Below the pieces are notes generated by a model that was not told where the DNA came from, ran no database searches, and saw nothing but the letters and a program-made list of their open reading frames with translations. Position numbers and translations under genes: made by a program. Positions 1 to 24,757 of a stretch of 40,843 nucleotides of DNA are shown piece by piece. How positions within the stretch are numbered: the first letter of the stretch is position 1; each line of letters opens with the position of its first letter. The DNA is from Okamejei kenojei (taxonomy: Eukaryota): NCBI GenBank assembly GCA_035221665.1, contig CM069157.1, forward strand, positions 744,001 to 784,843, read 5' to 3'.

Positions 1-589
1 TTTCAACAATCTGACATGACCATTTAACCAAGTACAGCTATACTGGGTTATCGGCTGAAATCTGGGCCAGTTTAGTGTCCGGGAGGTTGCTGGACTGTGT
101 TCATGTTTTCTCTCTCACATTTAAAAATAGTTTGCAATGACCTTAGTATTTCTGGTCATTGTTACAAAAGATGCATCTGGTCTCTGGCATCTCTGGGACA
201 TGGATTACTCGACAAGGTCCAACAAACTGGGTGCAACTTCCTGAAGGACATGGCTCAACTTCAGGAATAAAGAGAATTCCATGGCTACATTTGCAAGGGC
301 GTCTTACATCTTGAGTATGTCAAATAAATTAATAACTTTAAACTATGTATCTGGAGCTGCAGGAAATGTCACTTGCACTAAGAGATATAGATCTTGGCTC
401 ACGAGAAAAGATCGACACAAAATGCTGGAGTAATTCAGTGGGACAGGCAGCATCTCTGGAGAGAAGGAATGGGCGACGTTTTGGGATTTGTTCACTGTTA
501 CCCATCCATAGGTGACATTCTCTCATTCCTAATTCCATTACAGCTCTGCCTGCCCAGTCTTTACGTAAAGGGATTTGCACCAGTTAGTT

Positions 590-770
590 AGTTTAGTTTA
601 GAGATACAGCACTGAAACAGGCCCTTCTGCCCATCGAGTTCGCACCGACCAACAATCCCCGCATACAAGCACAATCCCACACAAACCAGGGACAATTTAC
701 ATTTATACCAAGCCAATCAACATGCAAACCTGTACGTCTTTGGAGTGTGGGAGGAAACCGGAGCACCCGG
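590..770 (-). mobile_element. tRNA-derived V-SINE (HE1-like), 5'-truncated
   Basis: Same family as 10441-10757, with a (CTAAA)n tail. Confidence 0.75.
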
Positions 771-771
771 A

Positions 772-1310
772 GTAGTGTGAGCAGTTTTGGGCCCCATATC
801 TGAGGGGGGATGTGCTGGTGCTGGAGAGGGTCCGGAGAAGGTTTACAAGAATGACCCCAGGCATGAGTGGGTTAACATATGACAAGTGTTTGACAGCACT
901 GGGGCTGTACTCACTGGAGTTTAGAAGGATGAGGGGTAAACAATTGACATTTTCTGAATAATTAAAGGCCAGGATAGAGTGGATGTGGAGAGGATGTTTC
1001 CACTGGTGAGAGAGTCTAGGACCAGAGGCCACAGCCTCAAACTAAAAGGACGTTCCTTTAGAAAGGAGATGAGGAGGAATTTCTTTAGTCAGAGGGTGGT
1101 GAATCTGTGGAATTCACTGTCACAGAAGGCTGTGTAGACCAAGTCAGTGGATATTTTTAAGGGGCAGATAGATAGATTTTTGATTAGTACGGGTGTCAGG
1201 GGTTATGGGGAGAAGGCAGGAGAATGGGGTTAGGAGGGAGAGATACATCAGCCATGATTAAATGGTTGAGTAGACTCGATGGGCCGAATGGCCTAATTCT
1301 GCTCCTATGA
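772..1310 (+). mobile_element. CR1-clade LINE 3' fragment
   Basis: Degenerate ORF2 C-terminus (QFWAPYL...LERVRRRFTRM...LGLYSLE...FFSQRVVNLWNSL) plus a 3' UTR ending GGCCGAATGGCCT. Confidence 0.85.
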
Positions 1311-2054
1311 TGAATGAACATCGGAGCATGAGAGGTTGAGCTGCGACCCGATAAAAGAATATCATGAAAGGCAGATATCGGGGCCTAGATAAACCTTGCT
1401 CCCAGTGTGAAGACGCCATGGTCTGAAGAGCGTAGATTAGAATGAGCGGGCAAAGCTAAAGGGAGATTTGTGAGGCATGGTTTAAAACGTGCGTGGCAGG
1501 TGCCTGAAACATCGTGCCAGGGAAGGTAGAAGCAGGTACTACCGCAGTGTGTAAGAGGCACAGCATGGTGGGAAGAAGGGCCTGTTCCTGTTCCGTACTG
1601 CTCTATGTTCAGTGTTGTGTGTATGATCATCTCATGAGACTGCTTTTACAAAACGGACATTCCTCCACAAGACTACACCCATGGGCTCCACGATGTCATC
1701 TACCTGAATTTTGTTAAAAATCATTAATTAAATAAAAGGAAAATTATGTTTTCCTTTGGCAATTGTTTCAGTCCAAATCATGTATATAAAGTTTGTTGTT
1801 GTGCCAAAAAAGTTCTAACACAAACATGTTTCCCCAGGGGCCTTAACTTCCCATGGAAACGAAACATCAGCCGTGTTTCCCAAAGAAAATCAGTTCAGAG
1901 CCTTGAACTATTGTGGCAGCATTGGAGCAGGAACAATACAGTATCCGGTCACTCCCACTGTGACCACAGTCGTGAGCAGCAGAGCTGTGGGGACATGGTC
2001 GTGGTTGGTGTGGCTAGGCACAGCTTCACTGAGTACCATCACCATACAAGCAGC

Positions 2055-2255
2055 CTGCTTCCTTTATCATTGATACTTTTTTGCATATCTTTCATTCATT
2101 GTTCTTTATCTCTCCACATCACCGTCTATATCTCTCGTTTCCCTCATCCTCAACCAGTCTGAAGAAGGGTCTCGACCCGAAACATCACCCACTCTTTCTC
2201 TCCAGAGATGCTGCCTGACTCACTGAGTTACTCCAGCTTTTTGTGTCTGTCTTCA
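2055..2255 (+). mobile_element. Penelope-like element 3' terminal repeat containing a hammerhead-like motif
   Basis: Aligns by eye to the UTR of the 18960-19415 element; ends in the GATGCTGCCTG...GAGTTACTCCAGC block seen many times in the window. Confidence 0.75.
2159..2186 (+). ncRNA. Putative minimal hammerhead ribozyme motif
   Basis: CUGAAGA-A-[GGGU cucg ACCC]-GAAAC-AUC: conserved hammerhead core boxes around a 4-bp stem II, with an NUH triplet. Confidence 0.6.
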
Positions 2256-2370
2256 CTAGGTAAAGGCAGATCCAGTAACTAGATGACTAATTTAGTTCTA
2301 GTTAATTAGAACTAACTATTGCTCACATCTCAATCATTGTCTCATTGGTTCTCAGAGTCATAGAGCTCTC

Positions 2371-2503
2371 GGTCTGAAGAAGGGTTTCGACCCGATACAC
2401 CACCTATTCCTTCTCTCCAGAGATGCTGCCTGTCCCGCAGAATTACTCCAGCATTTTGTGTCTATCTTCGGTGCAAACCAGCATCTGCAGTTCCTTCCTA
2501 CAC
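2371..2503 (+). mobile_element. Penelope-derived short repeat copy (hammerhead core mutated, GAAA to GATA)
   Basis: GGTCTGAAGAAGGGTTTCGACCCGATAC followed by the family 3' block. Confidence 0.7.
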
Positions 2504-2574
2504 ATGGTTCAGAGCTCAGATACAGTGCGGAGCCTTGTGTAGGCAGTATAAGGGGAGCATGGCTGTGTATTTCA

Positions 2575-3270
<696 letters not shown>

Positions 3271-3959
3271 GTTACAAAATAATAAACTGGCCAATGAGGT
3301 TTCACTAAATTAACAATTAGAATTATGGTCAGTGTGGGCTAGTAGGGCCAAAGGGCCTGTTTCCATTAACTGGGTGGTGGGTGTATGGAACGAGCTGCCA
3401 GAGGAGGTAGGTGAATATTATATTCAGTATATAGGTATATCTGGTAGTATACAGGTACTCAAACAATATTTAAATGACATTTGTACAGGTACACGGATAG
3501 GAAAGGTTTAGAGAGGTGTGGGCCAAACACGGGCAAGTGGGACTAAGTCAGGAAGGCTAGCATGGATGAGGTGGGCCGAACTACCTGGTTCCATGCTGTA
3601 CAATCTTTGCCTCTGTGACTGCTGCCTTACATGGAGATCCGTCTTAATATGATTTAAGTTGTAATTTCTCACAGTTATTTGATGAGACCTGTTCCTGCCA
3701 ATAGCTTCAAATGTTTTCAGGCATTTTCTCCAAGTCCCTGATAACATGTTGGTTACATTACTACACCATGCCATTTGAGAGTTTAAATTTAACCATTGAC
3801 ATGAATCTGGAACTGAACCTGGGGAGGTGTGTGTGAAACTATCAAACTGTCGTTAAACAAAGAATGTGGTTAAAACCTACATCCCCAGAGGGAGCTTCAC
3901 CACCCTGACCTGGTTTAGTCTTTATGTTACTCATTACCTAGCCTTGTTTATAGTTCAAA

Positions 3960-4245
3960 TAGTTCAGAGATACAGCGTGGAAACAGGTCCTTCGGCCCAC
4001 GGATCAGCAGCACGGAGTTCTGCGGGGAGGACCGGCTGGCGATCCCCACACACTAGGGACAATTTACAATTTTACACCAAGGCAAATAACCTACAAACCT
4101 CCACGTCTTTGGAGAGTGGGAGGAACTGGAGCACCCGGAGGAAACCCACGTGGTCAAGGGGAGAACGTGCAAACTCTGTACAGACAGCACCCCTAGTTAG
4201 GATTGGTGCTGTGAGGCAGCAGCTGTATCACTGCATCACTGTGTC
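3960..4245 (-). mobile_element. tRNA-derived V-SINE (HE1-like)
   Basis: Reverse complement of the family consensus, with internal divergence. Confidence 0.75.
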
Positions 4246-4872
4246 GGCTGGTAATGGTTGTGATCTCCACAGAAGCAGCTAGAGATCGCCAGGCACTAAT
4301 CAACAGTTGCCAACACCTCACCCTCAGCACCAGAGCTTTGAGTTTGAGTTCAGTTTATTGTCACGTGTACCGAGGTACAGTGAAAAGCTTTTGTTGCGTG
4401 CGATCCCGTCAGTGGAAAGACAACACATGATTACAATTGAGTCGTCCACAGTGTATAGATACAGGATAAAGTGAATATCATGGAGGACTGGCTGAACCTT
4501 GTTGCCCTCTACCACAGTAAAGAATGTGTGGTGGATGTTTGAGTTAAATTGTATTGTGTACTGTGTGTGCTTGTAAGCGTATCGCTGCTGGCAAATTCAT
4601 TTCACTGCATGTAATGTGCATGAGACAAATAAAATTGATTTTGACTTTGACTTTGAATGTGTAGGAAGGAACTGCAGACGCTGGTTTACACTAAAGATAG
4701 ACACAATATGCTGGAGTAACTCAGCTGGACGGGGAGCATCTCCGGACAGAAGCAATGGGTGACGGGAATAACATGAGTAACGTTCAGTGCCAGTAAAGTC
4801 CGATCAAAGATAATGTTGCCGTGTAGAAGAGTGTAGCGATAATGACGTGTGGTTGCAGGGACCGTGCGTGTG

Positions 4873-5370
4873 ACCAGCACACACTGGCCATGGCTAGACA
4901 CCACTCACTCAAGCCTCACCTCTAGTTACCAGCACACACTGGCCATGGCTAGACACCACTCACTCAGCACCTCACCTCTAGTTACCAGCACACACTGGCC
5001 ATGGCTAGACACCACTCACTCAACGCCTCACCACTCACTCAACGCCTCACCTAGTTACCAGCACACAATGCCATGGCTAGACACCCCCAACAATTACCTC
5101 TAGTTGGGCCAGTAGCATGTATCACCCTCACCTCTACAGTCCGGGACACCACTCACTGTTACCAGCACACAATGGCCATGAAGCTAGACCAGCTAGACAG
5201 GACACACACAATGGCCCTCACCTCTAGTTACCACACAATGCTGGCTAGACACCACTGACCATTAACACAAGCTACTTACAGTAGCATTGTATCACACAGT
5301 CCGGGCATGAAGTCCAGCTAAAGGACACTGCCACAGCTTTGACCATTAACACCCAAGCTACTTACATGTT
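4873..5370. repeat. ~55-bp degenerate tandem repeat ACCAGCACACACTGGCCATGGCTAGACACCACTCACTCA..CCTCACCTCTAGTT
   Basis: Units start at 4873, 4928 and 4984; later copies are scrambled. Confidence 0.85.
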
Positions 5371-5529
5371 GAAGGAAGTGAGCTTGACAAAGTTACTCTT
5401 CAATGAAGCCGTTAACGGGTTTAATCCGGTGACTCCAACCGCAGTGGAGATCAAGTACCCAATTGTTCCACCAAATTTGACAGCCTGATGTCGGCCGGAC
5501 CACATCGAGGTAGATCACGGTGCAGCACG

Positions 5530-5830
5530 CCGGCGCAGCGGGTAGAGCTGCTGCCTCACGGCGCCAGAGACCCGGTTCCACCCTGACTATAGGTGCTGTC
5601 TGTGTGGTGTTTGCACGTTCTCCATGTGACCTGCGTGGGTTTTCTCCGGGTGCTCCGGTTCCCTCCCACACTCCAAAGACATACAGGTTTGTAGACTAAT
5701 TGCCTTGGGTAAAAACTGTGAATTGTCCCGAGTGTGTGTAGGATAGTGTGAGTGTGCGGGGGTCGCTGGTCGGTGCGGACGCGGGGGGCTGAAGGGCCTG
5801 CTTCCGCTCTGTATCTCCAAACTAAACAAA
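5530..5830 (+). mobile_element. tRNA-derived V-SINE (HE1-like)
   Basis: GGCGCAGCGGGTAGAGCTGCTGCCTCAC head, V-domain TTTGCACGTTCTCC...CTCCGGTT..CTCCCAC, CTAAA tail. Confidence 0.85.
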
Positions 5831-6144
5831 ACAAAGCCGTCACCTCTTGTGCCATCTCTGGAGACAGGGTCAGCAGCACGGAGGTCTGCGGGGAGGACCG
5901 GCGGCGATAGTGGAGTGGTCAATGATGGCACTGACCGACCGACCGACCGACCGACGGACAAGGACGGACACATGGAAGTTTGGACACCGCTGCCGGGGGA
6001 AGGAAGAAAGGAGGACTTGGTGGGGGGAGGGGGGAGAACCAAGGGGGACCCAGCGTGGAGGGGAGGGGGGCGAAATTTGTAACTTTGTAAGTGGCCTTTA
6101 TGGGCGAATATTTGCACACCTTGGGTACACAGACAAAGACTCAC

Positions 6145-6550
6145 TTTACAAGAATGATTTCAGGAATGAGTGGGTTAACCTATGATGAGCGTTTGTCGGC
6201 ACTGGGCCTGTACTCGCTGGAGTTTAGAAGAATAAGGGGGGGACCTCATTGAAACGTACAGAATAGTGAAAGGCTTGGATAGAGTGGATGTAGAGGTGAC
6301 TAGAGGTCACAGGCTCAACATTGGAAGGATGTTCTCTTTGGAAGAAGATGAGGAGGAATTTCTTTAGTCAGAGGGTGGTGAATCTGTGGAATTCTTTGTC
6401 ACAGAAGGGTGTGGAGGCCAAGTTAATACGGGTGTCAGGGGTTACAGGAGGAAGGCAGGAGAATGGAGTAAGGAGGGAGATAGTTCATCCATGATTGAAT
6501 GGCGGAGTAGATTTGATGGGCCGAATGGCCTAATTCTACTCCTATCACTT
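6145..6550 (+). mobile_element. CR1-clade LINE 3' fragment
   Basis: Homologous to 772-1310. Confidence 0.85.
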
Positions 6551-6586
6551 ATGACGTGACAATAAAGTATTAATTCATTCATTCAT

Positions 6587-9500
6587 CACTCCATGTCCCA
6601 CACTCCATGTCCCACTCTCCATGTCCCACTCTCCATGTCCCACTCTCCATGTCCCACTCCATGTCCCACTCCATGTCCCACACCCCACTCCATGTCCCAC
6701 TCCATGTCCCACACTCCATTCCCATGTCCCACTCCACCCACACTCCATGTCCCACACCCACTCCATGTCCCACTCCATGTCCCACTCCATGTCCCACTCC
6801 ATGTCTCCATGTCCCACACACTCCATGTCCCATGTCCCACTCCATGTCCCACTCCAGTCCCACTCTCCATGTCCCACTCCATGTCCCACTCCCATGTCCA
6901 TGTCATCCCACTCCATGTCCCACCCACACTCCATGTCCCACTCTCCATGTCCCACACTCCATGTCCCACACTCCATGTCCCACTCCATGTCCCACTCTCC
7001 ATGTCCCACACTCCATGTCCCACTCTCCATGTCCCACTCTCCATGTCCCACTCCATCTCACTCCATGTCCCACACCACTCCATGTCCCACCACTCCATGT
7101 CCCACTCCATCCATGTCCCACTCCATGTCCCACACTCCATGTCCCACACTCCATGTCCCACTCCACTCCATGTCCACTTCTCCATGTCCACTCACCATCC
7201 ATGTCCCACTCCATGTCCCACACTCCATGTCCCACACTCCATGTCCCACTCCCATGTCCCACTCTCCATGTCCCACACTCCATGTCCCACTCCATGTCCC
7301 ACACTCCATGTCCCACACTCCATGTCCCACTCCATGTCTCTGTCCATCCCATGTCCCACTCCATGTCCATGTCCCACTCTCCATGTCCCACACTCCATGT
7401 CCCACTCCATGTCCCACTCTCCATGTCCCACTCTCCATGTCCCACTCCATGTCCCACTCCATGTCCCATCCATGTCCCACTCCATGTCCCACTCCATGTC
7501 CCACTCCCATGTCCCACTCCATGTCCCACTCCATGTCCCACACTCCATGTCCCACTCCATGTCCCACTCCATGTCCCACTCCATGTCCCACACTCCATGT
7601 CCCACTCCATGTCCCACACTCCATGTCCCACTCTCCATGTCCCACACTCCATGTCCCACTCCATGTCCCACACTCCATGTCCCACACTCCATGTCCCACA
7701 CTCCATGTCCCACTCTCCATGTCCCACACTCCATGTCCCACTCCATGTCCCACTCTCCATGTCCCACTCCATGTCCCACTCCATGTCCTCTGTCCCCACT
7801 CCATGTCCCACTCCATGTCCCACTCCATGTCCCACTCTCCATGTCCCACTCCATGTCCCACTCCATGTCCCACTCCATGTCCCACTCCATGTCCCACTCT
7901 CCATGTCCCAACTCCCATGTCCCACACTCCATGTCCCACTCTCCATGTCCCACTCTCCATGTCCCACACTCCATGTCCCACTCCATGTCCCACTCCATGT
8001 CCCACTCTCCATGTCCCACACTCCATGTCCCACTCTCCATGTCCCACTCCATGTCCACTCCATGTCCCACTCTCCATGTCCCACACTCCATGTCCCACAC
8101 TCCATGTCCCACTCTCCCATGTCCCACTCCACTCCATGTCCCACTCCATGTCCCACTCCCATGTCCATCATGTCCCACACTCCATGTCCCACTCTCCATG
8201 TCCCACTCCATGTCCCACTCTGTCCATGTCCATCTCCATGTCCCACTCCATGTCCCACTCTCCATGTCCCACTATGTCCACTCTCCATGTCCCACTCCAT
8301 GTCCCACACTCCATGTCCCACTCTCATCGTCCCACTCCCATGTCCCACTCCATGTCCCACTCTCCATGTCCCACTCCCACCCACTCTCCCATGTCCCACT
8401 CCATGTCCCCACTCCATGTCCATCCATGTCCCACTCCATGTCCCACGTCCCCACTCATGTCCCATTCCCACTCCCCCACTCCATGTCCCACTCCATGTCC
8501 CACCTCCATGTCCCACAACACTCCATGGAACCACTGTCCCACTCTCCATGTCCCACTCCATGTCCCACCTCCATGTCCCACTCTCCATGTCCCACTCCAT
8601 GTCCCACACTCATGTCCCACTCCATGTCCCACTCTCCATGTTCCCACAACACTCCATGTCCCACACTCCATGTCCCCACTCCATGTCCCCACTCCATGTC
8701 CCACACCGAGTCCCACTCCATGTCCCACTCCCATGTCTCTCCATTCCCCACTCCCCATGTCCCACTCTCCATGTCCCACTCCCCCATGTCCCACTCCATG
8801 TCCCACACTCCATGTCCCACTCTCCATGTCCCACACTCCATGTCCCACTCCATGTCCCACTCCATGTCCCACACTCCACACATGTCCCACTCTGTTCCCA
8901 CACACTCCATGTCCCACTCTCCATGTCCCACAATCCATGTCCCACACTCCATGTCCCACTCTGTCCCACTCCCATGTCCCACACTCCATGTCCACACTCC
9001 ACTGTCCCACATGTCCCACTCCATGTCCCACTCCATGTCCCACTTCCATGTGCCCACTCCATGTCCCACTCCATGTCCCCACACTGTCCCATCCGTCCCA
9101 CTCCATGTCCCCACTCCATGTCCCACTCCATGTCCCACTCCATGTCCCACTCCCCATGTCCCACTCCATGTCCCACTCCCCTCTCATGTCCCACACTCCA
9201 TGTCCCACACTCCATGTCCCCACACACATGTCCCACACTCCAGTCCCCACTCTCCATGTCCCACTCTCCGTGTCCCACTCTCCATGTCCCACTCCATGTC
9301 CCACTCCACTGTCCCCCACTCTCCATGTCCCACTCCATGTCCCACTCCATGTCCCACACTCCATGTCCCACTCTCCATGTCCCACACTCCATGTCCCACT
9401 CTCCATGTCCCATGTCCCACTCTCCATGTCCCACACTCATGTCCACTCTCCCATGTCCCACTCTCCATGTCCCACCCACACTCCCCCCAAAATCCCAGTC

Positions 9501-9660
9501 CCACTCTCCATGTCCCACTCTCCACCATGTCCCACTCTCCACTCCACTCCAATGTCCCACTCCATGTCCCACTCCCACCACCCACTCCCATTGTCCCACA
9601 CTCCATGTCCCACACTCCATGTCCCACTCCATGTCCCACACTCCATGTCCCACTCCATGT
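6587..9660. repeat. ~3.1-kb 14/16-bp minisatellite CACTCCATGTCC(CA/CACA/CACT)
   Basis: Visible tandem array; stop-free units explain the >1000-aa ORFs. Confidence 0.97.
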
Positions 9661-9664
9661 GCTA

Positions 9665-9886
<222 letters not shown>

Positions 9887-10440
9887 TCACCTCCGCACAG
9901 CTTCTGGGCCAAGGCTGGACTGTCCAAGGGGGCACCACCCACACAGTGCTCCCTCTCCTCTACAACGTCCTCCAGCCCCCCAACCCCCACCCCCCACCCC
10001 CCCGCCAACCTGGTTTAAACACCTCTTTATCCAGAGGGTGGTGAATCTGTGGAACTCATTGCCACAGAAGGTTTGGAGGCCATCAATGGAGAGGCAGAGA
10101 TAGATAGATCTCTTAAAGCAGAGATAGATAGATTCTTCATTAGTGCGGGTGTCACGGGTTATGGGGAGAAGGCAGGAGAATAGGGTTATGAGGGAGAGAT
10201 AGATCAGCCATGCTTGATTGGTGGAATAGACAAGTCTCCCCGTCAGGATAGTGGTTCCCCTCCACCTCTAGTGCCCATCCCTCTTGTACATGTTCCCTCT
10301 GGTCCAGAGCAGATGCCAATGGTCCCCATGTGTGAATGGCCGCCTCCTGCACCAACTCCTCAGCCACACATTCATCAGCTCCTGTTGTTGGCAGCAGCTC
10401 CGGCAATAATCCCCCGCATGCAATACACACACAGAGAACC

Positions 10441-11018
<578 letters not shown>

Positions 11019-11779
11019 TCAGTAACATAACAATACCTGAGAGATAGAGACACAAGGAACTGCAGGTGCTGGAAACCTGAGCAAAGTGCTGGAGGAACTC
11101 AGCGGGTCAGGCCTCATCTGTGGAGGGAATGGACAGACGACGTTTCAGGTCGGGACCCTTCCTTGGTGTCTCCATTCCCTCTAAGATGCTGCCTGGTACC
11201 TGAGAGATGTCTTAGGCTCCATCGATACCTTTGTATAGATATAGTACAATGCCTGGCTACTGTAAACCACAGCGCAATAAAGGCTTCTCCCTCATTTAGT
11301 CTTTCAAACCCAGTCTAAAGAAGGGTCTCGATCCGAAACATCATCCATTCCTACTCTCCAGAGATGATGCCTGACCCGCAGAGTTACTCCAGCTTTTTGT
11401 GTCTACCTGCGATATTGTCTTTAATCAGTTAAACGTAGCGAGGAAGTGAGGGAGAGACTTTGGCTTCTAGAGAAGAGGACAGGGTTGAGGATGGGCATCA
11501 GAGGGCAGGTGAGGTTCCAGCCAGAGTGACCACCTGATGCTGCTCACACCAAGCTGGTCACCACCAGAGTGTAACCATGCACCTTGTGCCTTGCTTCTGA
11601 AAGGTGCTTCTATTGAAGTTGCTGGATGCCAGGTTGAGCAGCTGAATCAATGTACCCTGGCTCCTGCATGGAGAGGTTGGTGGACATTCTCAAGTCGAGT
11701 TTATTGTGAGACGCACGGCTACAGCTGGGTACAGGGAAAATGTAAGTATTACCTGGTCTTATAGACAGCAAGCAAATGG

Positions 11780-12190
11780 GCCTGAGCTACAGGGAGAGGT
11801 TGGGCAGGCACGAACATTATTCCTTGGAGCGCAGGAGGATGAGGGGCGATCTTATAGAGGTGTATCTTATAAAGGAATAGATTGGGTAGATGCACACTTG
11901 CCCAGAGTAGGTGAATCAAGATCCAGAGGAGATAGGTTTAAGGTGAGGGGGGAAAGATTTAATAGGAACCCGAGGGGCAACTTTTTTACACAAATGGTGG
12001 GTGGGTGTGTGGAACGAGCTGCCAGAGGTGGCTGCAAGTAGCATGATGTTGAAGAGACAGTTGGACAGGCACATGGATAGGACAGGTTTGCAGGGATATG
12101 GGCCAAACGCGGGCAGGTGGGACTAGTGTAACTGGGACATGTAGCCGGTGGGGGCAAGTTGGGCCGAAGGGCCTGTTTCCGCTCTGTATC
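11780..12190 (+). mobile_element. CR1-clade LINE 3' fragment (second subfamily)
   Basis: GESRSRG.RFKVRGERF...NFFTQ; its 3' end GGGCCGAAGGGCCTGTTTCC is shared with the SINE tail. Confidence 0.8.
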
Positions 12191-12672
12191 ACTCTAAAAC
12201 AAAGCTCTTCACTGTACCTCGGTACACGTGACAATAGTTACAGGCGCTGGTTGGCAGGTCCATTACACCTCACCGTGACCACAGTGGTCCACAGCTCCGT
12301 GGACCAGGCTGCTGTAGGTGTGACCTACAATGGGCACGGTGTGAACTCCCCCAACCAGCACCCTCCACCCTGTCCCCCTCCCCCCCCCCTCGTCCTCCTC
12401 CGACCTACCCGACACAACCCAGCACCCCTCTCCAGTCCGAGGGCCCTCCCGGTTGCCCCCCCCTTGTCCCTCCCCCCCTCTGGTTGGGGGGTGTGGTGTG
12501 TGGGTGGGGGGGCCCTCCTGATGGTGGCCCCCCCCCTCCCCCCCCCCCTCCCACCCCTCATCCCCTCCCTCCCCATCCCCCCCTCCCTGTTCCCCCCTGT
12601 TCCCCCTCCCTGCCACTACTCCCCCCTCCCCCCGACTCCCTCCCCGTTGCGCCCCCCCCTCGTGTCACGTAC

Positions 12673-12775
12673 CCTTGGTGGTCTCGCTCTCACGGACCAG
12701 GTAGGATCCGTGCGTGTTCCCCGTTGTCAGCAGCTGCCGTTCCGCATCCTTGCGTCCAGACTCTGGAAGAACCAG
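12673..12775 (-). CDS. lck: Lck SH2 exon 1: WFFQSL(G)[28 protein letters not shown], with an apparent 1-bp deletion near 12756
   Basis: gacag| acceptor, G|gtacgt donor; YLVRES (FLVRES) motif. Length is 103 nt where the flanking phases require 104, and WFFQSL and RKDAERQLL are in different frames. Confidence 0.92.
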
Positions 12776-13110
12776 CTGTCCACAGAGCAAGAGAGAGTCT
12801 AGTTTATTGTCACGTGTACCGAGGTACAGTGAAAAGCTTCTGTTGCGTGCTGACCAGTCAGCGGAAAGACAATATATGATTACAATCGAGCCATTTACAG
12901 TGTATAGATACGGGTTAAGGGAATAATGTTTAGTGCAAGGTAAAGCCAGCAAAGTCGGATCATAGACAGACCAAGCACTATCTGGGTTAGACAGAAAGGG
13001 TCTGGCAGATCAGGGAGAAGGTCCCGGTATGATCGTTCACAGTTTGGGAAACAGACGGTAAACGTGACAATGGCAGAGAGAGTCAGCGAGCGAGCGAGCG
13101 AGCAGCTTAC

Positions 13111-13209
13111 GGTTCAATCCCCAGCGAGTGAGCCTGAGCCACAAAGTTGTATGGGATATATCCTTCTTCTCCAGTCACCGTCGACACAGCTTTCCACCAC
13201 TCTCCCTCC
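13111..13209 (-). CDS. lck: Lck SH3 exon 2: [33 protein letters not shown]
   Basis: tacag| acceptor, |gtaagc donor, 99 nt; WW and GYIPxNFV SH3 motifs. Confidence 0.95.
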
Positions 13210-13297
13210 CTGTACACACAGGACCATGGTATTAATGAATCATCCAACAATCTGTAACATCTTCACATCAAACCGTGCTTAACCCCGCACACTAGAT

Positions 13298-13590
13298 TGG
13301 AGATACAGCGCGGAAACAGGCCCTTTGGTACAGCGAGTCCGCACTGACCAGCGATCCCCGCACACTAACACTATCCCACACTCACTAGGGACAATTTACA
13401 ATTTTACCCAAGCCAATTAACCTACACACCTGCACGTCTTTGGAGTGTGGGAGGTAACTGGTGCACCCGGAGAAAACCCACGCGGTCACAGGGAGAACGT
13501 GCAAACTCCGAACAGACAGCACCCGTAGTCAGGATGGAGCTCGGGACTCTGGCGCTGTGAGGCAGCAGCTCCACCCGCTGCACCACCGGG
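13298..13590 (-). mobile_element. tRNA-derived V-SINE (HE1-like)
   Basis: Reverse complement of the family consensus. Confidence 0.85.
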
Positions 13591-13808
13591 CCACATAACT
13601 CCCTCAGGCAAACTTTGTACAAAATGTTTGATCTCCAAAGGAAACAAATAAACAAATAATCGATCTTGCAACTCTTCCTGTTTCAAGGAACTGCAGTAAT
13701 GGTTACAATCTCTTTGTTTACATTTCCTCCTCACGTTGTCCGTCTTGTCCCTCAGTCAGAGTGCTGGCTGCTCTAATCGCAGCGTGGCGTCTGCCCGACA
13801 CAACTCAC

Positions 13809-13902
13809 CGACTGGTCACCTTTATCTGGTCGCCTTTCTTCAACTCCAGGTCATCCTGATGTTGTCGCTCGTAGTTGTACAAGGCGACAAACAGATCATC
13901 AG
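13809..13902 (-). CDS. lck: Lck SH3 exon 1: ADDLFVALYNYERQHQDDLELKKGDQIKVTSR
   Basis: tttgcag| acceptor, |gtgagt donor, 94 nt, phase 1 to 2; ALYxY...DL..KKG SH3 motif. Confidence 0.95.
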
Positions 13903-13929
13903 CTGCAAATATACAGAAGAGTGAACGGA

Positions 13930-14255
13930 CTGGTTAGAGTGCATGTGGAGATGATGTTACCACTAGTGGGAGAGTCTAGGACCAGAGGGCACAGCCCCAG
14001 AATTAAAGGACGTTCCTTCAGGAAGGAGATGAGGAGAAATTAATTTTGTCAGAGGGTGGTGAATCTGTGGAATTCTTTGCCACAGATGGCTGTGGAGGCC
14101 AAATCAGTGGATATTTTGAAAGCAGAGATAGATTCTTGATTAATACAGGTGTCAGGGGTTAGGGGGAGAAGGCAGGAGAATAGGGTTAGGAGGGATAGAT
14201 CAGCCATGATTGAATGGCGGAGTAGACTTGATGTGCTCCTGTCACTTATGATGTT
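13930..14255 (+). mobile_element. CR1-clade LINE 3' fragment
   Basis: Homologous to 772-1310. Confidence 0.8.
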
Positions 14256-14579
14256 ATGAAATGAATCAAAGCAGCCCAGATTGTGAGCAAGGTAGTTCAT
14301 TTACTGGAGGATACGGTGCAGACAAGTGAACTGCAGATGCTGGTTTACAATAAAGATGGACACAAAATGCTGGACCCAGCATGGGATACGTTTAAACTTT
14401 GTCCTTTACGTGGCAACCCTTTGCATACCTTGTGACATCATCACTGTGACAATGAAACATTCATTCGCTCATTCATTCACTCATTCATTCATTCACTCAT
14501 TCCAACATCACCCACCTGCTCCATTCATGCCAGGATCGCACGGCCATGCTTGGTTACGACTGGCCTGGTGATAACTTAC

Positions 14580-14649
14580 CCGGAAAGGGAGAGGTGGGCG
14601 GAGAATGATGCTCATATTCCACCAAGGGATCTCGAACTTCTGGATAGTT
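14580..14649 (-). CDS. lck: Lck unique-domain exon: NYPEVRDPLVEYEHHSPPTSPFP
   Basis: tttactctag| acceptor, G|gtaagt donor, 70 nt, phase 0 to 1. Matches Lck EVRDPLVTYEGSNPPASP. Absent from the ORF track in this frame. Confidence 0.93.
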
Positions 14650-16064
14650 CTAGAGTAAAATGGAAAGCAGTGATAGCCTGAGTGTTGGCACATTGACCTT
14701 CACCATAAGTTACTGAAGGAAGCAGAGATATTGTTCTCGGGCAGCCACTGTTGTGGATCTGTTTGATGGGTACAAACATCTTGGCAATCTCCACTCTTTC
14801 AAACTCTACCATTAAAGTCCATTCAGTTCTAAAAAAAAGCCCAGGTCATTTTGACTCCATGCTGATGGGTAGAATCTTCCAGAACTGATCGTTCCTTCGT
14901 AAACTTTATCCCGAACCTCTCCTGTGTCTGTGGACCCTTTTCACACGACACAGAGCCAGCGTGTTACAGCATGGAAACAGGCCCTTCGGCCCAACCATGA
15001 CATCCCATTTAAACTTGCCCCAATTGGCCCATATTCCTTTAAACATTAAAGGACACAGGGTGTGGGCGTAACTCAACAGGTCAGGCAGCATCTCTGGAGG
15101 ACATAGATAGATGACGTGTTGGGTCAGAATCTTTCTTCAGTCAGAAGAAGTGTCCTGATATGAAACATCGCTATCCATGTTCTCCACAGATGCTGCCTGA
15201 CCCGCTGAGTTACTCCAGCAATTTGCATTTAACTTTGGTTTACTGGGCTTGGGTTTGGTTATCCTGCTACAGAAAAGATGCCATAACTGATGTCAGGTCT
15301 CCACCCAACCTCCATGCTCCAGAGAGAACAATCCCAGTTTGTCCAATCTCTCCCTCTAGCTGATGCTCCCTAAACCAGGCATCATTCTGGTAAATCTCTC
15401 CAAAGCCTCCACATTCTTCCTGTAATGGGACAACCAGAATGTAGAATTGGACGAAACACCCGTGGCAGTAGATGACCCTTCAGCCCAATGCTTCTGTACT
15501 AACTGGTAACAGAGGGAGCTGGTCTATTGTGGGCCTGAGCATCACTGGTCACTGCACCCAGCACTGTGTAAATGTCCCAGAGCTTGGCTTTGATACAGAG
15601 GGCAGCTCTGGGAGACACCGCCTTGGAGTCTGATGGGAAAGGAGTTAAAGATTAACTGAAGACATGGGAGGCTGGGACCAGCTGGTTATCAGTTACTGAG
15701 TTACTCCAGCACTCTGTGTCTTCTTCTGTAAACCAGCACCTGCAGTTCCTTGTTTCCTCATTCTTCACTCACAGCTGACTACACGGGTTTCATAAATATT
15801 TACTTCCTCTGATAATGTAGGGGTGAGTCGGTTGACTTCTCTTCACCAATACCCCTGGAACACCACCACCTCTGCCCACATTTTGCTTTTAGCTTCTCAT
15901 TTCAACTCCTCTCTTTTCCAGTCTTCACCTTGTGGTCAAATCCTACCTAATGGGAGAGGGAAGAGTTAGAGGCGCGTGGGCCCAAATGTGGGACTAGTTT
16001 AGATCGGTATGTTGGTCGGCATGGGTGAGTTGGTCTGAGGCATGGTACAGTGATGCAGCTTAGA

Positions 16065-16350
16065 CCAGAGACACAACATGGAAACAGGCCCTTCAGCCCA
16101 CCGAGTCCATGCCAACCATCGATCGCCCGTTCACTAGTTCTATGTTATCCCACTTTCTCATCCACTCCCTACACACTAGGGGGTCAATCAACCTACAAAG
16201 CTGCCCGGCTTTGGTGTGTGGGAGGAAACCGGAGCACCCGGAGGAAACCCACATGGTCACATGGAGAACGTGCAAACTCCATACATACAGCACCCGAGGT
16301 CAGGAACGATCCCGGGTCTCTTGCGCTGCGAGGCAGCAGCTCTACCCACT
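16065..16350 (-). mobile_element. tRNA-derived V-SINE, divergent subfamily
   Basis: Head and V-domain conserved; 3' half differs. Confidence 0.75.
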
Positions 16351-16461
16351 CTACCTCCCATGCATCCCGTCAGTCACCAGCACATCGAAAGATATCCCTG
16401 TGTGATTTCAGGAACCATTGATGAAGCTGATTATCGGCCAGGTGCCGAGGAGGAGACTCAC

Positions 16462-16569
16462 TTGTTGCTGGTACTGCTTCTGCTCACGCTCATACTCCAG
16501 CTTGCATTGTTCACACATGTCCTCAATCCAGTTGTCATCGTCATAGTCAGAGCTGCAGTTGCAGCCCAT
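16462..16569 (-). CDS. lck: Lck first coding exon (SH4/unique domain): MGCNCSSDYDDDNWIEDMCEQCKLEYEREQKQYQQQ
   Basis: ATG at 16569, preceded by acceptor ttttccag|CAACC (exon starts 16574); donor CAA|gtgagt; 108 nt. G2/C3/C5 acylation motif plus CxxC (CEQC), as in Lck MGCGCSS...CENC. Confidence 0.95.
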
Positions 16570-16695
16570 GGTTGCTGGAAAACAAGCAGAGCCAACATCT
16601 TCAACCACAGCGACTAACGTCTTGCCTGAGGTTACGCTTCATGCCTGCAGGTGTGTACAGACTGCTCCCCTCACTCACTGCTCGGTGCAGTCACT

Positions 16696-17010
16696 TTAGT
16701 TTAGTTTAGTTTACAGTACAGTACAGGACAGACACAGGCCCTTCGGCCCACCGAGTCTGTGCTGACCAGCGACCCCCGCACACTAACACTATCCTGCACC
16801 CATTGGGGACAATTTACAATTTTACCCAAGCCAATTAACTTACAAACCTGTACATCTTTGGAGTGTAGGAGGAAACCGGAGCATCCGGAGAAAACCAACG
16901 CAGGTCACGGGGAGAACGTGCAAACTCCGTACAGACAGCACCTGTAGTCAGGATGGAACCCGGGTCCCTGACTCTGTGAGGCAGCAGCTCCACCCGCTGC
17001 ACCACCATGC
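16696..17010 (-). mobile_element. tRNA-derived V-SINE (HE1-like) about 120 bp upstream of the lck start exon
   Basis: Full-length reverse-complement copy with a (CTAAA)n tail. Confidence 0.85.
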
Positions 17011-18169
17011 CAGCTAAAACCTCTTGATGTGAAGGGGTTATCACTACCCGTTACACTTTCCATTGCCTTGCTTGTCAGGAACTGGAGTCACTTGTATCTA
17101 ACAATGTTGCACAGTTCATCATTCAGAACAGTAGCTGTTACTCTGATATTTATTTGAAGGATTTTTACAGCAGCATTGATCAAGGTTTCAAGGGGATATG
17201 GGTTGAATGCAGGTGAATGGGACTTGTTTATCTGGGGCACATTGGTCAGAATGCACACGCTGGGCTGAAGGGCCTGTTTCCATGCTGTACACCTCTACGG
17301 CAGTGTACAATGGCCCTAGAACTTCACAGTCTTCCAAAATTTGTTATTTACCTACTTCTGAGGAAAGTACTGATGAGGTTTATTGCCTTGACAGATTAAC
17401 TCAATTCCTCTCTCCACAGACGCTGCCTGGCCTGCTGAGTATTTGTTTTATCTCCAGCATCTTGTAGGATTTTGACGTGTGGACAATTTCCTGTTTCCTT
17501 TACTAGAACCTTGCTACACACATCCATGGTACCGCTCGGCCCATCCACTCTATCCTAGCCCTATTCTCCACCGTGTAAGTATCCAGCATCATTGCCGCTT
17601 GGATGGGAAGGTCGCAAGGTTTGGCTCGGTCTCTGCACAGTCGGGATGCAAGTTATTGCTGTATTCCGGCTACTGAACCATCCTAATGCAACCAGAGAGC
17701 AGTCTTGTGCTACTATCTACCTCACCAGGGACTCTTGGACTATCCTTGATCGGACTTTACTGGCTTCACCTTGCACTAAACGTTTTTCCCTTCTCATGTA
17801 CTTGTACACAGTAAATGGCTGGATTGTAATCATGTGTTGTCTTTCTGCTGACTGGTCAGCACGCAACTAAAGCTTTTCACTGTACCTCAGTACACGTGAC
17901 AATAAACTGAACTGAAGTCGCATTGGCCAGAGTCCAGATTTAGCCTGATGTGACACGTTAAATTGCAGCTTATTCCGGGTGAAAACACGCAGAGGCTTCA
18001 CGGTTCACATGTTTAGGTTACATTCTGCCACAGACACTCACACATTCCCAGAGAGGATTTTATTGCTCAGCTGAAACTAATAGAAGAGGTATGCGTGGAC
18101 CTGTGCACCATGCCTCTGGGAAACATATTTCATCAACAGATACAGGTTTCCCTGGGTAGCTGTCTCCAG

Positions 18170-18470
18170 AGTCACAGAACTGTACAGCACGGAAACAGGC
18201 CCTTCGGCCCACCTTGTCCATGCCGACCAAGTTGCCGACTGGGCTAGTCCCATTGCCTGTATTCGGCTCATAGCCCTCTAAACCCTTTCTATCTGTCTGT
18301 ATCTGTCCAAATGATGATGTCTGTCTAAAAGTTGTAATTGTATCTACAGCTTCCTCTGGCAGCTCATTCCAGATACAGACTACCCTCTGAGTGAAAAAAG
18401 TTGCCCCCAGGTCCCTCTTAAATCTCTCTGCGCTCTCACCTTAAACCTGTGCCCTCTGCTTTTAGAATCC
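18170..18470 (-). mobile_element. CR1-clade LINE 3' fragment
   Basis: Minus-strand DSKSRGHRFKVR and the family 3' end. Confidence 0.75.
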
Positions 18471-18959
18471 TCTACCTGGCTCAAACCTTTCTCAGTTAAA
18501 ATATTGGAAATTAATCTTGTAAGATTATCAGGGAGACAATGTTTCTGTTTTCCTTTGACATTTTCATCTGCTCGTGATGCTATCGTCACCTCACGCACTA
18601 ATACTATCATGGAATTTCCGTGACTAACGTGTTTGTTTAAACAGAAGAGAAAATGATATCTGTGCGAAAAAACTTTCCTAACAAAACCTCACACTGGTAA
18701 TCTTTCTTGAAGCAACAACAAATCAGTATTCATTTTATTAAATAAAACCTTAGATTATAAAAACACACATATCTGTATTTTATATCACTTAGTGCAAATA
18801 TTCAAATCGCTTGCCAAGAAGTTTGCCAGAAGTAACAAGAGACTGAAGAAGAGTCCCGAACTGAAACGTCACCGATCCATGTTCTCCACAGATGCTGCCT
18901 GACCGGCTGAGTTACTCCAGCACTCCGTGAAACGTCACCTATCCATGTTCTCCACAGAT

Positions 18960-19415
18960 GCTGCAGAGATGCTACCTGACCCAAAATGCTGGAGTAACTC
19001 AACGGGACAGGCAGCATCCCTGGAAAGAAGGAATAAGTGACGTTTCGGGTGGAGACTGAAAGTGATGGGAAAGGGAAACTAGAGACACAGATATAGATGA
19101 TGATGTAGAGAGATAAGGAACAAATGAATGAAAGATAAGCAAAAAAATAACGATGATAATGGAAACGGCAAACTGTCAGCTGTTTGCTAGGTGAGAACGA
19201 GAAGCTGGTGTGATGGGTGGGGGAGAGATGGAGAGGGAATGCAGGGGTTACGTGAAGTTAGAGAAATCAATATTCATACCACTGGGCTGTAAGCTGCCCA
19301 AGCAAAATATAAGATGCTGTTCCTCCAATTTGCGTTTAGCCTCACTCTGACAATGGAGGAGGCCTAGGACAGAAAGCTAAGTGTGGGAATGGGAAGGAGA
19401 ATTAAAGTGTTTAGC
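18960..19415 (-). mobile_element. Penelope-like retroelement 3' fragment (GIY-YIG endonuclease C-terminus plus 3' UTR)
   Basis: 19415 to 19248 translates AKHFNSPSHSHT*LSVLGLLHCQSEAKRKLEEQHLIFCLGSLQPSGMNIDFSNFT*, resembling the Penelope GIY-YIG C-terminus. Its 3' UTR is homologous to 2055-2255. Confidence 0.8.
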
Positions 19416-20039
19416 AGCGGAAAGACTATGCATGATTACAATCGAGCCGTTCACAGTGTATAGATCCATGATAAGCGAATAACACATCCATCCTGGGATG
19501 TACATCCAAACGCAACAGCGAGTGCAGCCCCCGTGACTCTGACAACTGCCTTGCTGCAAGAACCAGGCAGAGCTGCCAAACTACCAGTGCAGCAGTATTT
19601 TGTGGTGAGCATGTTGCTTGGTTTGTGTGTCACTGCTGTGGTCAACCTGCACTGAAATAGTTTCCATGCCTGCTTTGTCCATTTTTTGAGGTTTTCATAA
19701 CTCAAGAAGTATGACATAAAACTGTTCACAACTGTGTCAGCGCAAGGCTGATAGTTGTGCAAACTTTCCATGCCAGGGTTGGTCAAACATCGGCAACTAC
19801 CTAAGCATCAGTCTGTGAAGCCCCTGCCCACCCCCACCCCCACCAACCCCCCACCCCTCCCCGTCACCCCCCCTCACCCCCCTCAAAGCCTTGAATGCCA
19901 AGAGGGTGAAGCAGCTGAGAACATCCTGGACTTACAACAAAAGACCTGGAAGAAACATTTAGACAGGTACATGGAATGGACATGTTTAGAGGGATAGAGG
20001 CAAAGATAATCCCCTTGCACCCCAACGGACCAATACAGT

Positions 20040-20330
20040 TCATAAGGTCATACTTTACTGCAGCAGAATTAGGCCATTCGGCCCATCGAGTCTAATCTGC
20101 CATTCAAGCATGGTTGATCTATCTCTCCCTCTCAACCACATTCTCCTGCCTTCTCCCCATAACCCATGAGACCCGTACTAATCAAGAATCTATCTATCTC
20201 TGCCTTAAAATTGACTTGACCTTCTGTGTCAATGACTTCCACAGAATCATCACCCTCTGATGAAAGAAATTCCTCCTCATCTTTTTCCTGAAGGAACGTC
20301 CTTTAATTCTGAAGCTGTGCCCTCTGGTCC
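20040..20330 (-). mobile_element. CR1-clade LINE 3' fragment
   Basis: Reverse complement of the 772-1310 3' region. Confidence 0.8.
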
Positions 20331-20333
20331 TGT

Positions 20334-21215
20334 GGGGGGGACGGGGAAGGGGGAGGGGGTGGGGGGGGAGGTGGGGTTGGAGGGGGAGAGGGGGGAGGTG
20401 GGGGAGGAGGGGAGAGAGGAGGGGGAGGAGGGGGAGGAGGGGGAGGGGGAGGAGGGGGGAGGGGGAGGGGGGGAGGAGGGGGAGGAGGTGGGAGGGAGGG
20501 GAGGTGGAGGGGGGAGGGGAGGAGGGTGGGGGAGGAGGGGAGGGGAGGGGGGAAGGGGGGGAGGGTGGAGGGGGAGGAGGGGGGGTGGAGGGGAGGTGGA
20601 GGGGGTGAGGGGGAGGAGGTGGAGGTGGAGGAGGGGAAGGAGGGGGAGGAGGGGGGAGGGGGGGAGGGGAGGGGGGTGGGTAGGGGGGAGGGGGAGGTGG
20701 GAGGAGGGGGAGGGGGAGGAGGGGGAGGGGGGAGGGGGAGGTGGAGGGGGGGATTGGAGNNNNNNNNNNNNNNNNNNNNNNNNNNNNNNNNNNNNNNNNN
20801 NNNNNNNNNNNNNNNNNNNNNNNNNNNNNNNNNNNNNNNNNNNNNNNNNNNNNNNNNNNNNNNNNNNNNNNNNNNNNNNNNNNNNNNNNNNNNNNNNNNN
20901 NNNNNNNNNNNNNNNAGGGGGGTGGGTGGGGGAGGGGGAGGAGGAGGTGGTGGAGGGGGGGTTGGAGGGGAGGAGCGGTGAGGGGGAGGAGAGGAGAGGA
21001 GGGGTGGAGGGCGGCGGGGATTAGGAGACGGGAGGAGGGGGGGGGGAGGAGGCGGGAGGGGGGGGAGGAGGGGGGGGGGGGGAGGGGTGGAGGGAAGGGT
21101 GAGGGTGGGTTGGGGGAGGTAGGGGTGAGGAGGTGGGAGGGGGGGAGGGGGGGAGGGGGGAGGGGGAGGGGGGGGGTGGAGGGGGGGGAGGGGGGAGGGG
21201 GAGGAGGGGGAGGGG
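20334..21215. repeat. G-rich polypurine low-complexity tract spanning an assembly gap
   Basis: (GGA/GGGGA)n-like sequence. Confidence 0.9.
20760..20915. other. Assembly gap (156 N)
   Basis: Run of N. Confidence 1.
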
Positions 21216-23003
21216 TGGATTCTTTTCTTCACATTGGGGGGTGAGTGGGAGGCATCAGGGCTGGTTTTAGATTAAGAGAAGCCCTACGCTATTGCACTTG
21301 TGAGGCCCCTCCCAATCCCCCACCCCCACCATGAGTGGAAGATGGAAGAGTCCACCAGATTGACACCGATGTGCAGCCGAGCGTGGCCAATCAGATAAGG
21401 GGCAGGAAAGCTGCACTATTTATTTATTTATTTATTGCCAGCGCTAGTGTCGAGTTATCGGCTTAAAACACTATTATTCTGAAATGGAGGGCAAGGAAAA
21501 TTACTGAAGGGTTGTTTAGAGACAAGAGTGCGTTGTGACAGCATATGTAAGAAAGGCCTATGACAGTGTCAAAAATATTATACACCAGGCCCGTACGAAG
21601 CTTTTCAAAAAGGAGGGTGGCATGGCAGGATTACGAAAAATTTATGTGAAATAAGTGCACGCAGCGCATATCACAAGTGCGAAGCTCAAAGACGCTTGCA
21701 GCCGGGGTCCAGGGCCCGCTTAAGGACCCTGGAAGCTCTGGGGCTTTAGATGCTCTCTGTTGCATTCTGAGCCTTATTTTGGAGCATTTTTGCACCAAAT
21801 CTATGGCCAATATTTCAGAAATAATTTTGGTTGAGTCAAGAGTAATGAGTGGTTGGAATGGGATGATTGGGGTCATTGTTGTATACATTTTCTTTAATGA
21901 AAAATTGAAGTTGTCCTTAATAATCAAGTTGTACTGTAAAATGATATGTAAAATGTTATAAAGGAGCATGCAAACATTGCAAACAAAACACTGTAAGTTT
22001 TTGCAGTAAATAAAACCTTTTTTTAGGAAATGTTTTGTGTGTTGATTTGATTGTCTTTTACTGTTCGACTGTGTTAGTGTGTGCATGTTAAAAATATGAT
22101 GCAAAATGAAAGTCGCAAACTATGGAACTCATATTTTTCAGTATTGTTATCAAGGAAAAGAAAGCAGTTCCAATAGTTTGATATTATTCATATGGAGGAG
22201 AAAATATAATTGCTCTAAAACCTACCTTAATTTTGCAATCTCACTAAAGATAATCGCCCTTCCCCTCTACCCCCCTCTCTTTCCCCCTCCCCCCCCCTCC
22301 CCACCTCTCCTCCCCCTCCACTCTCTCTCTCTCCCTCCCTCACTTTTCTCTTCCCCCTTCCCCCTCATCCTCTCCTCTCACTCCACACCCTCACCCCCCC
22401 CCCCCTCTCTCTCTCTCTCCCCCCCTCCCCTCCCTCTCTCTCCCCCCAATCTGTCTCAACCCCCCCTTTTCCCCTTTTTCACACCTACCCCTCCTCTCTC
22501 ACCCTCCCACGCAGCGAGGCTCCGACTCCGTGCCACAGACACCGCAGCCCCTCCCTTTCCCCCCCGGCCCGGAGAAACGGGCACTCCGGCAACGCAATAT
22601 TCCACCACTTACCTGGAGTAGACACGAGTCATCGAGGTGATTGTGTGGAGTGGAAATGGAGATCTGAACCCGCCCGGGCCCACTGGTCACACGCGGAGAG
22701 GCAGCGTCATTTTGTGTCGCTACTGCGTCACCGGCTTTTCCCAACTGCGCAGGCGCGGATGGTTGCAATTTTTTTCCCCAAAACTTCCAGCGGCCGGAAC
22801 CAGAATTTCGGATAATTTCCGTTAAAGTGGAAACGCTGATCGCGCTCCAATTTTTTTTTTGTTGGGTTTGTTTTACTCTGGAAAAAAAACATCTTGGCCG
22901 GAGGCCCCCTAGATTTTGAGGCCGTAGGCTTCAACCTATGATGAGGCCTGTAGGCAAATCCGGCCCTGCCGAGGCCCCCTAGATCTCGAGGCCCTAAACC
23001 TAA

Positions 23004-23377
23004 GGGGTTCTTAAGGGGTTGGACAGGCTAGATGCAGGAAGATTGTTCCTGATGTTGGGGAACTCCAGAACAAGGGGTCACAGTTTAAGGATAAGGGGGA
23101 AGTCTTTTAGGACCGAGATGAGAAGATCTTTTTTCACACAGAGAGTGGTGAATCTGTGGAATTCTCTGCCACAGAACGTAGTTGAGGCCAGTTCATTTGC
23201 TACATTTAAGAGGGAGTTAGATGTGGCCCTTGTGGTTAAAGGGATCAGTGGGTATGGAGAGAAGGCAGGTACGGGATACTGAGTTGGATGATCAGCCATG
23301 ATCATATTGAATGGCAGTGCAGGTTTGAAGGGCCGAATGGCCTACTCCTGCACCTATTTTCTATGATTCTATGATTC
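23004..23377 (+). mobile_element. CR1-clade LINE 3' fragment
   Basis: RTRGHSLRIRGKSFRTEMRRSFFTQRVVNLWNSLP; (TTCTATG)-type tail. Confidence 0.9.
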
Positions 23378-24545: not shown

Positions 24546-24687
24546 CCGCGAGTGATAATTGTACACAGAATTAGGAGTCTGCACCCTCTGGTGAAGCTTT
24601 GTCCCTCATCACTCTCCCTGCTACCAGTTACATGTTGTCACTGCCCCTGCCCTTTGGTCCCTCTGCTAGGAGAGGGGCCAAAGGGCA

Positions 24688-24720
24688 CCAATACCGATAC
24701 CAATACTGATACCAACACCA

Positions 24721-24757
<37 letters not shown>

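Follow-up and report, generated by a model that had tools for sequence, protein, structure and literature searches.

A short motif resembling a hammerhead ribozyme recurs throughout the window, i.e., the 40,843-nt stretch of Okamejei kenojei DNA analysed here (contig CM069157.1), and raises the questions of which element carried it there, whether that element cut its own RNA and whether the copies seen can still do so. We consider it highly probable that a Penelope-like element (PLE), likely of the Neptune type, had this repeat as its 3' terminal repeat and left it here in the form of short decayed remnants, and that the active ancestor likely self-cut via a minimal hammerhead.

Copies of the repeat and their hammerhead-like motif

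A profile seeded with 13 window copies and applied at a threshold of E<=0.01 gave 27 matches spanning 408..39716 on both strands (14 on the plus and 13 on the minus strand), and none in the reversed window, which served as the control. The matches total 2,287 bp, or 5.6% of the window, and include all 15 copies named in the original prediction, so that the density is about one copy per 1.5 kb (27 copies in 41 kb) instead of the one per 3 kb estimated there. The 28-nt consensus, with up to three mismatches allowed, was matched five times in the window and never in 100 shuffles. Three sequence types of 14, 5 and 5 copies were separable by ad hoc rules among the 27, and three copies were left without a type. 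Besides the copies described individually below, the profile search placed members at 485-408, 4764-4693, 11165-11073, 24134-24049, 28755-28652, 29852-29773, 39416-39381 and 39716-39642 on the minus strand, and at 11307-11410, 15695-15722, 17404-17466, 25732-25831, 28094-28197, 32271-32360, 36693-36799 and 39444-39500 on the plus strand.

The anchor copy (2159..2186, plus strand, antisense to the host gene) reads GAAACATC. Its core consists of C3-A9 at 2159-2165, G12-A15.1 at 2179-2182 and H17 at 2186, with an extra A at 2166, and its stem II is formed by 2167-2170 and 2175-2178 on the plus strand. The 5' strand of helix I lies at 2155..2158 (plus strand), which is also where the majority of family copies start; no more than 2 bp form there, 2157-2158 with 2187-2188. 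Past the predicted cut site, the body (2187..2254, plus strand) has the short 3' end and no tail. The ACGU palindrome named in the original prediction is broken in this copy because position 16.2 (2184) is A, not G. In the contigs of three DNA runs, G makes up 56%, 56% and 44% of the depth at 2184, where the reference has A; since G is common there in all three runs, it is likely the ancestral base, and A is likely a product of CpG decay.

The consensus put forward for the family is reproduced by the column majority, which reads CUGAAGA, an extra A, a GGGU/ACCC stem II with a 4-nt loop, GAAA, CGU and C17. The core positions C3-A9, G12-A14, A15.1, U16.1 and H17 are all present in the column majority of the 27 copies and are complete in three of the 13 copies that span the motif. 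The extra base after A9 is A in 15 of 17 copies, G10.1 is found in 16 of 17, and position 11.1 is C in 13 of 22 and T in 8 of 22. The palindrome at 15.1-16.1, which takes the place of helix III, is ACGU by majority (16.2 is G in 13 of 23 copies and A in 10 of 23). Helix I of the family is only 2 bp long, with pair 3 missing in 11 of 13 copies and pair 4 in 11 of 12.

This majority sequence fits the consensus of Cervera and de la Pena 2014 (PMC4209133) for the minimal type I hammerheads of PLEs, namely CUGANGAH / G10.1-C11.1 / GAAA / palindrome / NUH, so the motif was correctly assigned to this class. The CUGANGAH core with its extra base, G10.1-C11.1, GAAA, the palindromic 15-16 and NUH are shared with the published hammerheads, as are the pyrimidine-rich 5' flank and the mostly solo copies with some opposite-strand pairs; the 4-bp stem II and the 2-bp helix I stand at the short end of the published range (PMC4209133). 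Helix I rows in the supplement of that paper run from 2 to 6 bp, with 2-bp cases in Culex, Drosophila and Oikopleura, and the hammerheads described there were uncleaved as monomers and cleaved at a low level as dimers (PMC4209133).

The same core occurs outside the family. A degenerate core pattern found at least 120 metagenome loci, of which 80 had their flanks examined, and gave no match in viral contigs. Core conservation among these loci is circular, since they were picked by the core pattern, and because they are unrelated to the repeat outside the core (by blastn, one match of 29 nt, the core only, among the matches listed for the at least 120 loci) they are usable only as outgroups and not as family members. 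Two of their properties are independent of the pattern. Among the matches listed, 29 of 120 loci carry a PLE protein, on the strand of the core, that terminates 69-167 nt upstream of it, and a 3-bp helix I, which lay outside the search pattern, is formed in 13 of 30 distinct contexts as compared with 3.5 in shuffles, none of 10,000 being as high. The core is therefore a real PLE hammerhead type. Among the matches listed, L076:551-579 was the sole locus sharing the 5' flank of the batoid family, and it has a 3-bp helix I. Three further loci (L005, L047 and L118) each carry two cores on opposite strands, in the inverted layout also seen in the window.

That the likeness to a hammerhead arose by coincidence in an unrelated repeat is hardly credible. 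Such a coincidence would fit the absence of Rfam hammerhead matches in the window (none at the gathering score and none among 24 matches at E<=10) and the absence of covariation inside the family: a stem II covariation check gave no signal above shuffles in 13 window copies (score 0.176 vs 0.173 shuffled, with 217 of 500 shuffles as high), a comparison of low power made on dead copies of one family. However, 11 core bases, the extra base, G10.1-C11.1, the palindrome and the place behind a PLE open reading frame all agree with the published pattern, and the coincidence is ruled out by the PLE linkage and by the helix I pairs that flank this core at other loci.

Whether the family could fold and cut is a separate matter. 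ViennaRNA gave stem II of the majority sequence a probability of 0.06 in a 40-mer and 0.00 in 95 nt with the downstream body, and a hammerhead-like dimer reached -12.7 kcal/mol as compared with -26.5 kcal/mol for the best dimer. The folding stability of five real copies was nothing unusual (z-scores from -0.75 to 0.70), and the subfamily folds were uninformative for type B, with a noisy 5-copy majority. Given the 2-bp helix I and the competing fold, unaided cleavage of a monomer is unlikely. In the majority at 2153-2163, the first five core bases can pair with the five bases that precede position 2.1, which could conceal the core; this same self-complementarity is also the centre of the inverted pair at 15140.

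These properties bear on a reading that we hold to be possible, if rather unlikely, in which the batoid family was already inactive as a ribozyme before it was amplified, its core being a relic or a protein-binding site paired to downstream sequence. Helix I of 2 bp, where 31 of the 52 other contexts of this core have at least 3 bp (among the matches listed), and the predicted fold, which buries the core, are consistent with it. PAc, the Poseidon element of the anole, also lends it weight, since its hammerhead mutants did not lower insertion in vitro (Frangieh et al. 2024, PMC11167929), and so do Naiad PLEs, which prosper although they have no hammerhead (Craig et al., bioRxiv 10.1101/2021.04.23.441226). 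On the other hand, all 11 core positions are kept in the 27-copy majority even though the three sequence types differ elsewhere, a 2-bp helix I is known in published PLE hammerheads (PMC4209133), and the PAc hammerhead, which cleaves only with protein, does cleave once protein is added (PMC11167929). An ancestor that cut itself through its minimal hammerhead is the reading we prefer.

Penelope-like origin of the repeat

The derivation of the repeat from Penelope is borne out by one copy that follows, at a distance of about 190 nt, the C-terminus of a PLE reverse transcriptase (RT)/GIY-YIG protein. The C-terminus of the PLE polyprotein, i.e., the end of its GIY-YIG endonuclease, is encoded at 19248..19415 on the minus strand as a 5'-truncated remnant of 55 codons with one internal stop. 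It is directly followed at 18976..19247 (minus strand) by a 3' UTR of about 190 nt and a repeat copy in which the 5' half of the core is deleted. The UTR part of the anchor (2059..2154, plus strand) and the UTR that follows the endonuclease remnant at 19248 are 82% identical across 93 nt (2059-2144). Only one of the 27 copies is joined to coding sequence.

The 42-residue fragment after the stop (19251-19376) matches 72 proteins, the best named ones being gene models of Rhinoraja longicauda (85%) and Leucoraja erinacea (80%). From P0046, one of these 72, 51 long relatives of 734-958 residues were found, in which RT (PF00078) is listed for most and GIY-YIG (PF01541) for 15. The 55-residue remnant matches 40 of the 51, and where aligned it lies at their extreme C-terminus. 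Pfam gave no match to the short protein fragment of the window, and its GIY-YIG matches to relatives were below the cut-off and in three of nine only. The RT domain is absent from the window and present in the relatives. Among the proteins retrieved there was no intact full-length one from a skate or ray (the best matches, at 45-49%, were to unnamed proteins), and the master element was not seen. The batoid proteins aligned have a CX2-5CxxC zinc-finger linker, as do 50 of the 51 long relatives; the window remnant ends short of this linker. Such a linker between RT and endonuclease marks Neptune/Nematis (Craig et al., bioRxiv 10.1101/2021.04.23.441226), and judging from these alignments the source element was likely a PLE of the Neptune type. 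P0001, P0013 and P0037 are NCBI gene models of skates and rays that end in the endonuclease peptide of the element (e.g., neuromedin-U receptor 1 and LAMP3 isoform X2), and these ends are likely annotation artefacts. Fragments of the element protein thus sit in skate and ray gene models, and repeat annotation is affected.

The order of the element is the endonuclease end, a UTR of about 190 nt, the hammerhead motif, a body of about 65 nt and an optional tail of about 35 nt. The tail was found in nine of the 27 copies, eight of them above the 99.5% null and one being itself a probe. PLEs are described as having 5' truncation, inverted or tandem joints and an optional tail of 30-40 bp (Craig et al., bioRxiv 10.1101/2021.04.23.441226), and all of these are present in the repeat family, with the joints recurring in three DNA runs. 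A second copy 215 nt downstream of the anchor (2368..2505, plus strand) has a broken core (A14, U16.1) and the tail of about 35 nt, and an older-type copy with a tail (31343..31640, minus strand) has in front of it a pyrimidine-rich stretch with an inverted duplicate (about 31480-31640). Two plus-strand copies at 18839-18928 and 18928-18982 form a partial tandem, standing tail-to-tail with the endonuclease-bearing copy as an inverted pair (18839-19056). Head-to-head inverted pairs occur at 15050..15235, joined at a short palindrome overlapping the core start, and at 39014..39240, where the minus copy runs from the first base past the predicted cut site and the plus copy begins just 5' of the core.

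Abundance, 5' ends and proposed mode of insertion

The family had been described as very abundant, and this is confirmed by the 27 copies in the window and by about 150,000 contigs per run in three DNA runs. A 231-nt stretch matched 144,957 contigs in run X2, 151,971 in X6 and 151,139 in X13, the runs coming from three related organisms; runs X16-X21 are small shares, of which X16 alone was compared. Compared with the unique flank, the motif is covered about 1.3-1.6 x 10^5 times as deeply, which is an order of magnitude only and not a copy number. High abundance is expected, since this class shows thousands of motifs per genome (PMC4209133). The remnants seem far above the intact motifs counted there, about 4,000 in the coelacanth and about 9,000 in Xenopus, but the two kinds of counts are not comparable. 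Shark or skate terms were absent from two of the three supplement files of that paper, of which file 1 may list more species (PMC4209133). No description of skate or ray PLE hammerheads, or of this repeat family, was found in a full-text search of mostly open-access papers. Our results extend the link between PLEs and hammerheads to batoids, at very high copy number.

Of the 14 copies extending to the 5' side, ten have their first base no more than about 7 nt from C3; seven of these adjoin unrelated DNA and three an inverted partner, and the other four extend further up. Each of the three DNA runs has about 1,000-1,900 contigs breaking off at every listed place among 2155-2157, with unlike flanks (agreement 0.31-0.36), as well as head-to-tail joints of 92-100 nt that lead back to 2155-2157 (7-27 contigs each). 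Tandem units that each hold a complete hammerhead are absent from the window. The inverted junction 39113/39114 starts at the base past the predicted cut, and a joint 2187->2155 is listed in run X13; these cut-site junctions are a weak hint only. A splice acceptor was also considered as the cause of the 5' boundary, as CAG precedes the core here as in D. virilis (PMC4209133), and it is unsupported because the copies retain the CAG and their loose ends have no common exon.

A common 5' end would be expected if most copies, instead of being truncated at random, were non-autonomous SINE- or retrozyme-like units of about 95-140 nt, which we regard as unlikely. RNA would then start 3-5 nt before the core and the PLE enzyme would copy it from the tail to the RNA 5' end, and tandem units would supply two hammerheads in cis. 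The starts near C3 in ten of 14 window copies, the many contig breaks with unlike flanks at 2155-2157 in three DNA runs and the joints of 92-100 nt are what such a unit would leave behind. We take the TCAGT before the core to resemble an initiator, and the Penelope element of D. virilis has an internal promoter including an initiator (PMC2377424). However, the break at 2155 is partly an artefact, since divergence of the anchor copy at 2145-2154 exaggerates what the runs show there; tandem joints are scarce relative to about 150,000 contigs; and the palindrome TTCAG-T-CTGAA over the core start could give fold-back or template switching with no promoter at all.

The furthest-reaching form of this idea, to our mind a doubtful one, is that skates and rays carry a hammerhead-headed non-autonomous mini-retroelement of about 95-140 nt in about 10^5 copies per genome, with an intact or tandem minority still self-cleaving. 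An RNA start 3-5 nt before the core would then cap helix I at 2-3 bp. If it were true, these copies would be among the largest sets of vertebrate ribozymes, and the cut-site junctions would document, within the genome, that PLE hammerheads cleaved in vivo.

For the terminal repeat of a truncating PLE, which we favour, PAc offers the closest guide. Its reverse transcription has two initiation points, both lying downstream of the hammerhead (Frangieh et al. 2024, PMC11167929), and these two start sites would explain the optional tail. By analogy, the protein of the skate element may nick DNA and prime reverse transcription from either of two such positions (PMC11167929). Each insertion would start at the short end or the tail end, copy the hammerhead first and usually halt soon after. 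A start downstream of the hammerhead would leave all insertions ending with the repeat and most of them short, as extrapolated from PAc (PMC11167929). The master RNA likely cleaved weakly after GUC, either by dimerizing via the ACGU palindrome or with the element protein acting as chaperone, or both (PMC4209133, PMC11167929). The abundant junctions allow one to ask whether templates are cut at the hammerhead and why so many starts lie just before the core.

PAc and the repeat share a hammerhead in the pLTR, two classes of 3' ends about 35 nt apart and AT-rich flanks. PAc alone belongs to the Poseidon clade, is intact, was tested with protein-assisted cleavage and has its ORF start inside the hammerhead (PMC11167929), whereas the skate family has the Neptune/Nematis zinc-finger linker, and neither an intact copy nor an ORF start was seen in it. 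Non-LTR retrozymes are likewise non-coding, pLTR-derived units with type I hammerheads (PMC7229834), and head-to-tail dimers are rare here. Retrozymes with a mean of 363 bp were reported in one chondrichthyan, and of nine Xenopus dimers one cleaved and eight did not (Li, Clavereau and Pollet 2026, bioRxiv 10.64898/2026.07.22.740005). Unlike these, the unit described here is about 95-140 nt long and dispersed rather than arrayed, and has a minimal and mostly broken hammerhead.

Decay of the copies and the host gene

The copies had been called self-cleaving, which is unsupported for those seen here. Thirteen of the 27 cover C3 to position 1.2, the other 14 not spanning the motif, and none of the 13 jointly has an intact core, a 4-bp stem II and the palindrome. 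A pattern of intact core and intact stem II with a free loop had no match in the window. All 11 core bases are present in three copies, namely 2159 (without the palindrome), 32797 (stem II with three of four pairs) and 18843 (stem II with two of four). The copy closest to intact is that at 32668..32807 (minus strand), which has the full core, the palindrome, a 2-bp helix I, three of four stem II pairs and the tail, and lies on the same strand as the host kinase exons. With no intact copy in the window, these copies are ordinary fossils of a described class.

Nor is the core more conserved than its surroundings, as had been expected of a functional motif. Outside CpG sites, mismatches to the majority amount to 16 of 181 (8.8%) in the core and 96 of 936 (10.3%) in the downstream flank (P=0.68, window copies), which counts against function in the window. 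At CpG sites the figures are 36 of 128 (28%) in the motif and 14 of 52 (27%) downstream. In run X2, the catalytic G12 reads A at 13% of depth, as compared with 7% per loop CpG base (among the variants listed). The decay is neutral, with CpG loss in the lead. Being made on single dead copies, the comparison of core and flank speaks against selection after insertion and not against an active ancestor.

Exons of a Src-family kinase lie on the minus strand, with SH2 at about 11000 to 10868 and kinase segments near 9700 and at 2620-2800. The top PDB matches of the SH2 exon are HCK, then Lyn and Lck, and a motif scan located no upstream exons of the gene. The anchor copy lies beyond the last kinase exon found, on the opposite strand. 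It is extremely unlikely that the motif is an intronic ribozyme adopted by the host to regulate this HCK-like gene, in the manner of the conserved intronic hammerheads of amniotes. Copies do lie between the kinase exons and 13 of the 27 are on the kinase strand, but the anchor is broken and antisense to the gene, the window holds no intact copy, the strands are balanced (14 vs 13) and the core has no excess conservation. The broken antisense anchor, the lack of strand bias and the lack of excess conservation largely refute host adoption. The locus is a dead intronic remnant with no sign of host function, and the copies in the kinase gene are predicted neither to cleave nor to serve the host.

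Other repeats share the window. Long minisatellites lie at 2822-3270 (20 nt), 24686-25502 (12 nt) and 6587-9660 (12/14 nt), the last of which occupies 3 kb of an intron. Among the matches listed, a second dispersed family occurs at 949-1173, 13909-14133, 22998-23251, 26104-26357, 29163-29773 and 31712-32269, in stretches of up to about 620 nt at 84% and in inverted orientation; it is a candidate for CR1/L2 LINE ends, which it resembles. The assembly has a gap at 20760-20915, comprising 156 N within a G-rich low-complexity tract. A third family of about 180 nt, putatively SINE-like, has at least 11 partial copies, at 597-757, 13296-13483, 16714-16901, 37097-37284, 40475-40654 and other sites.
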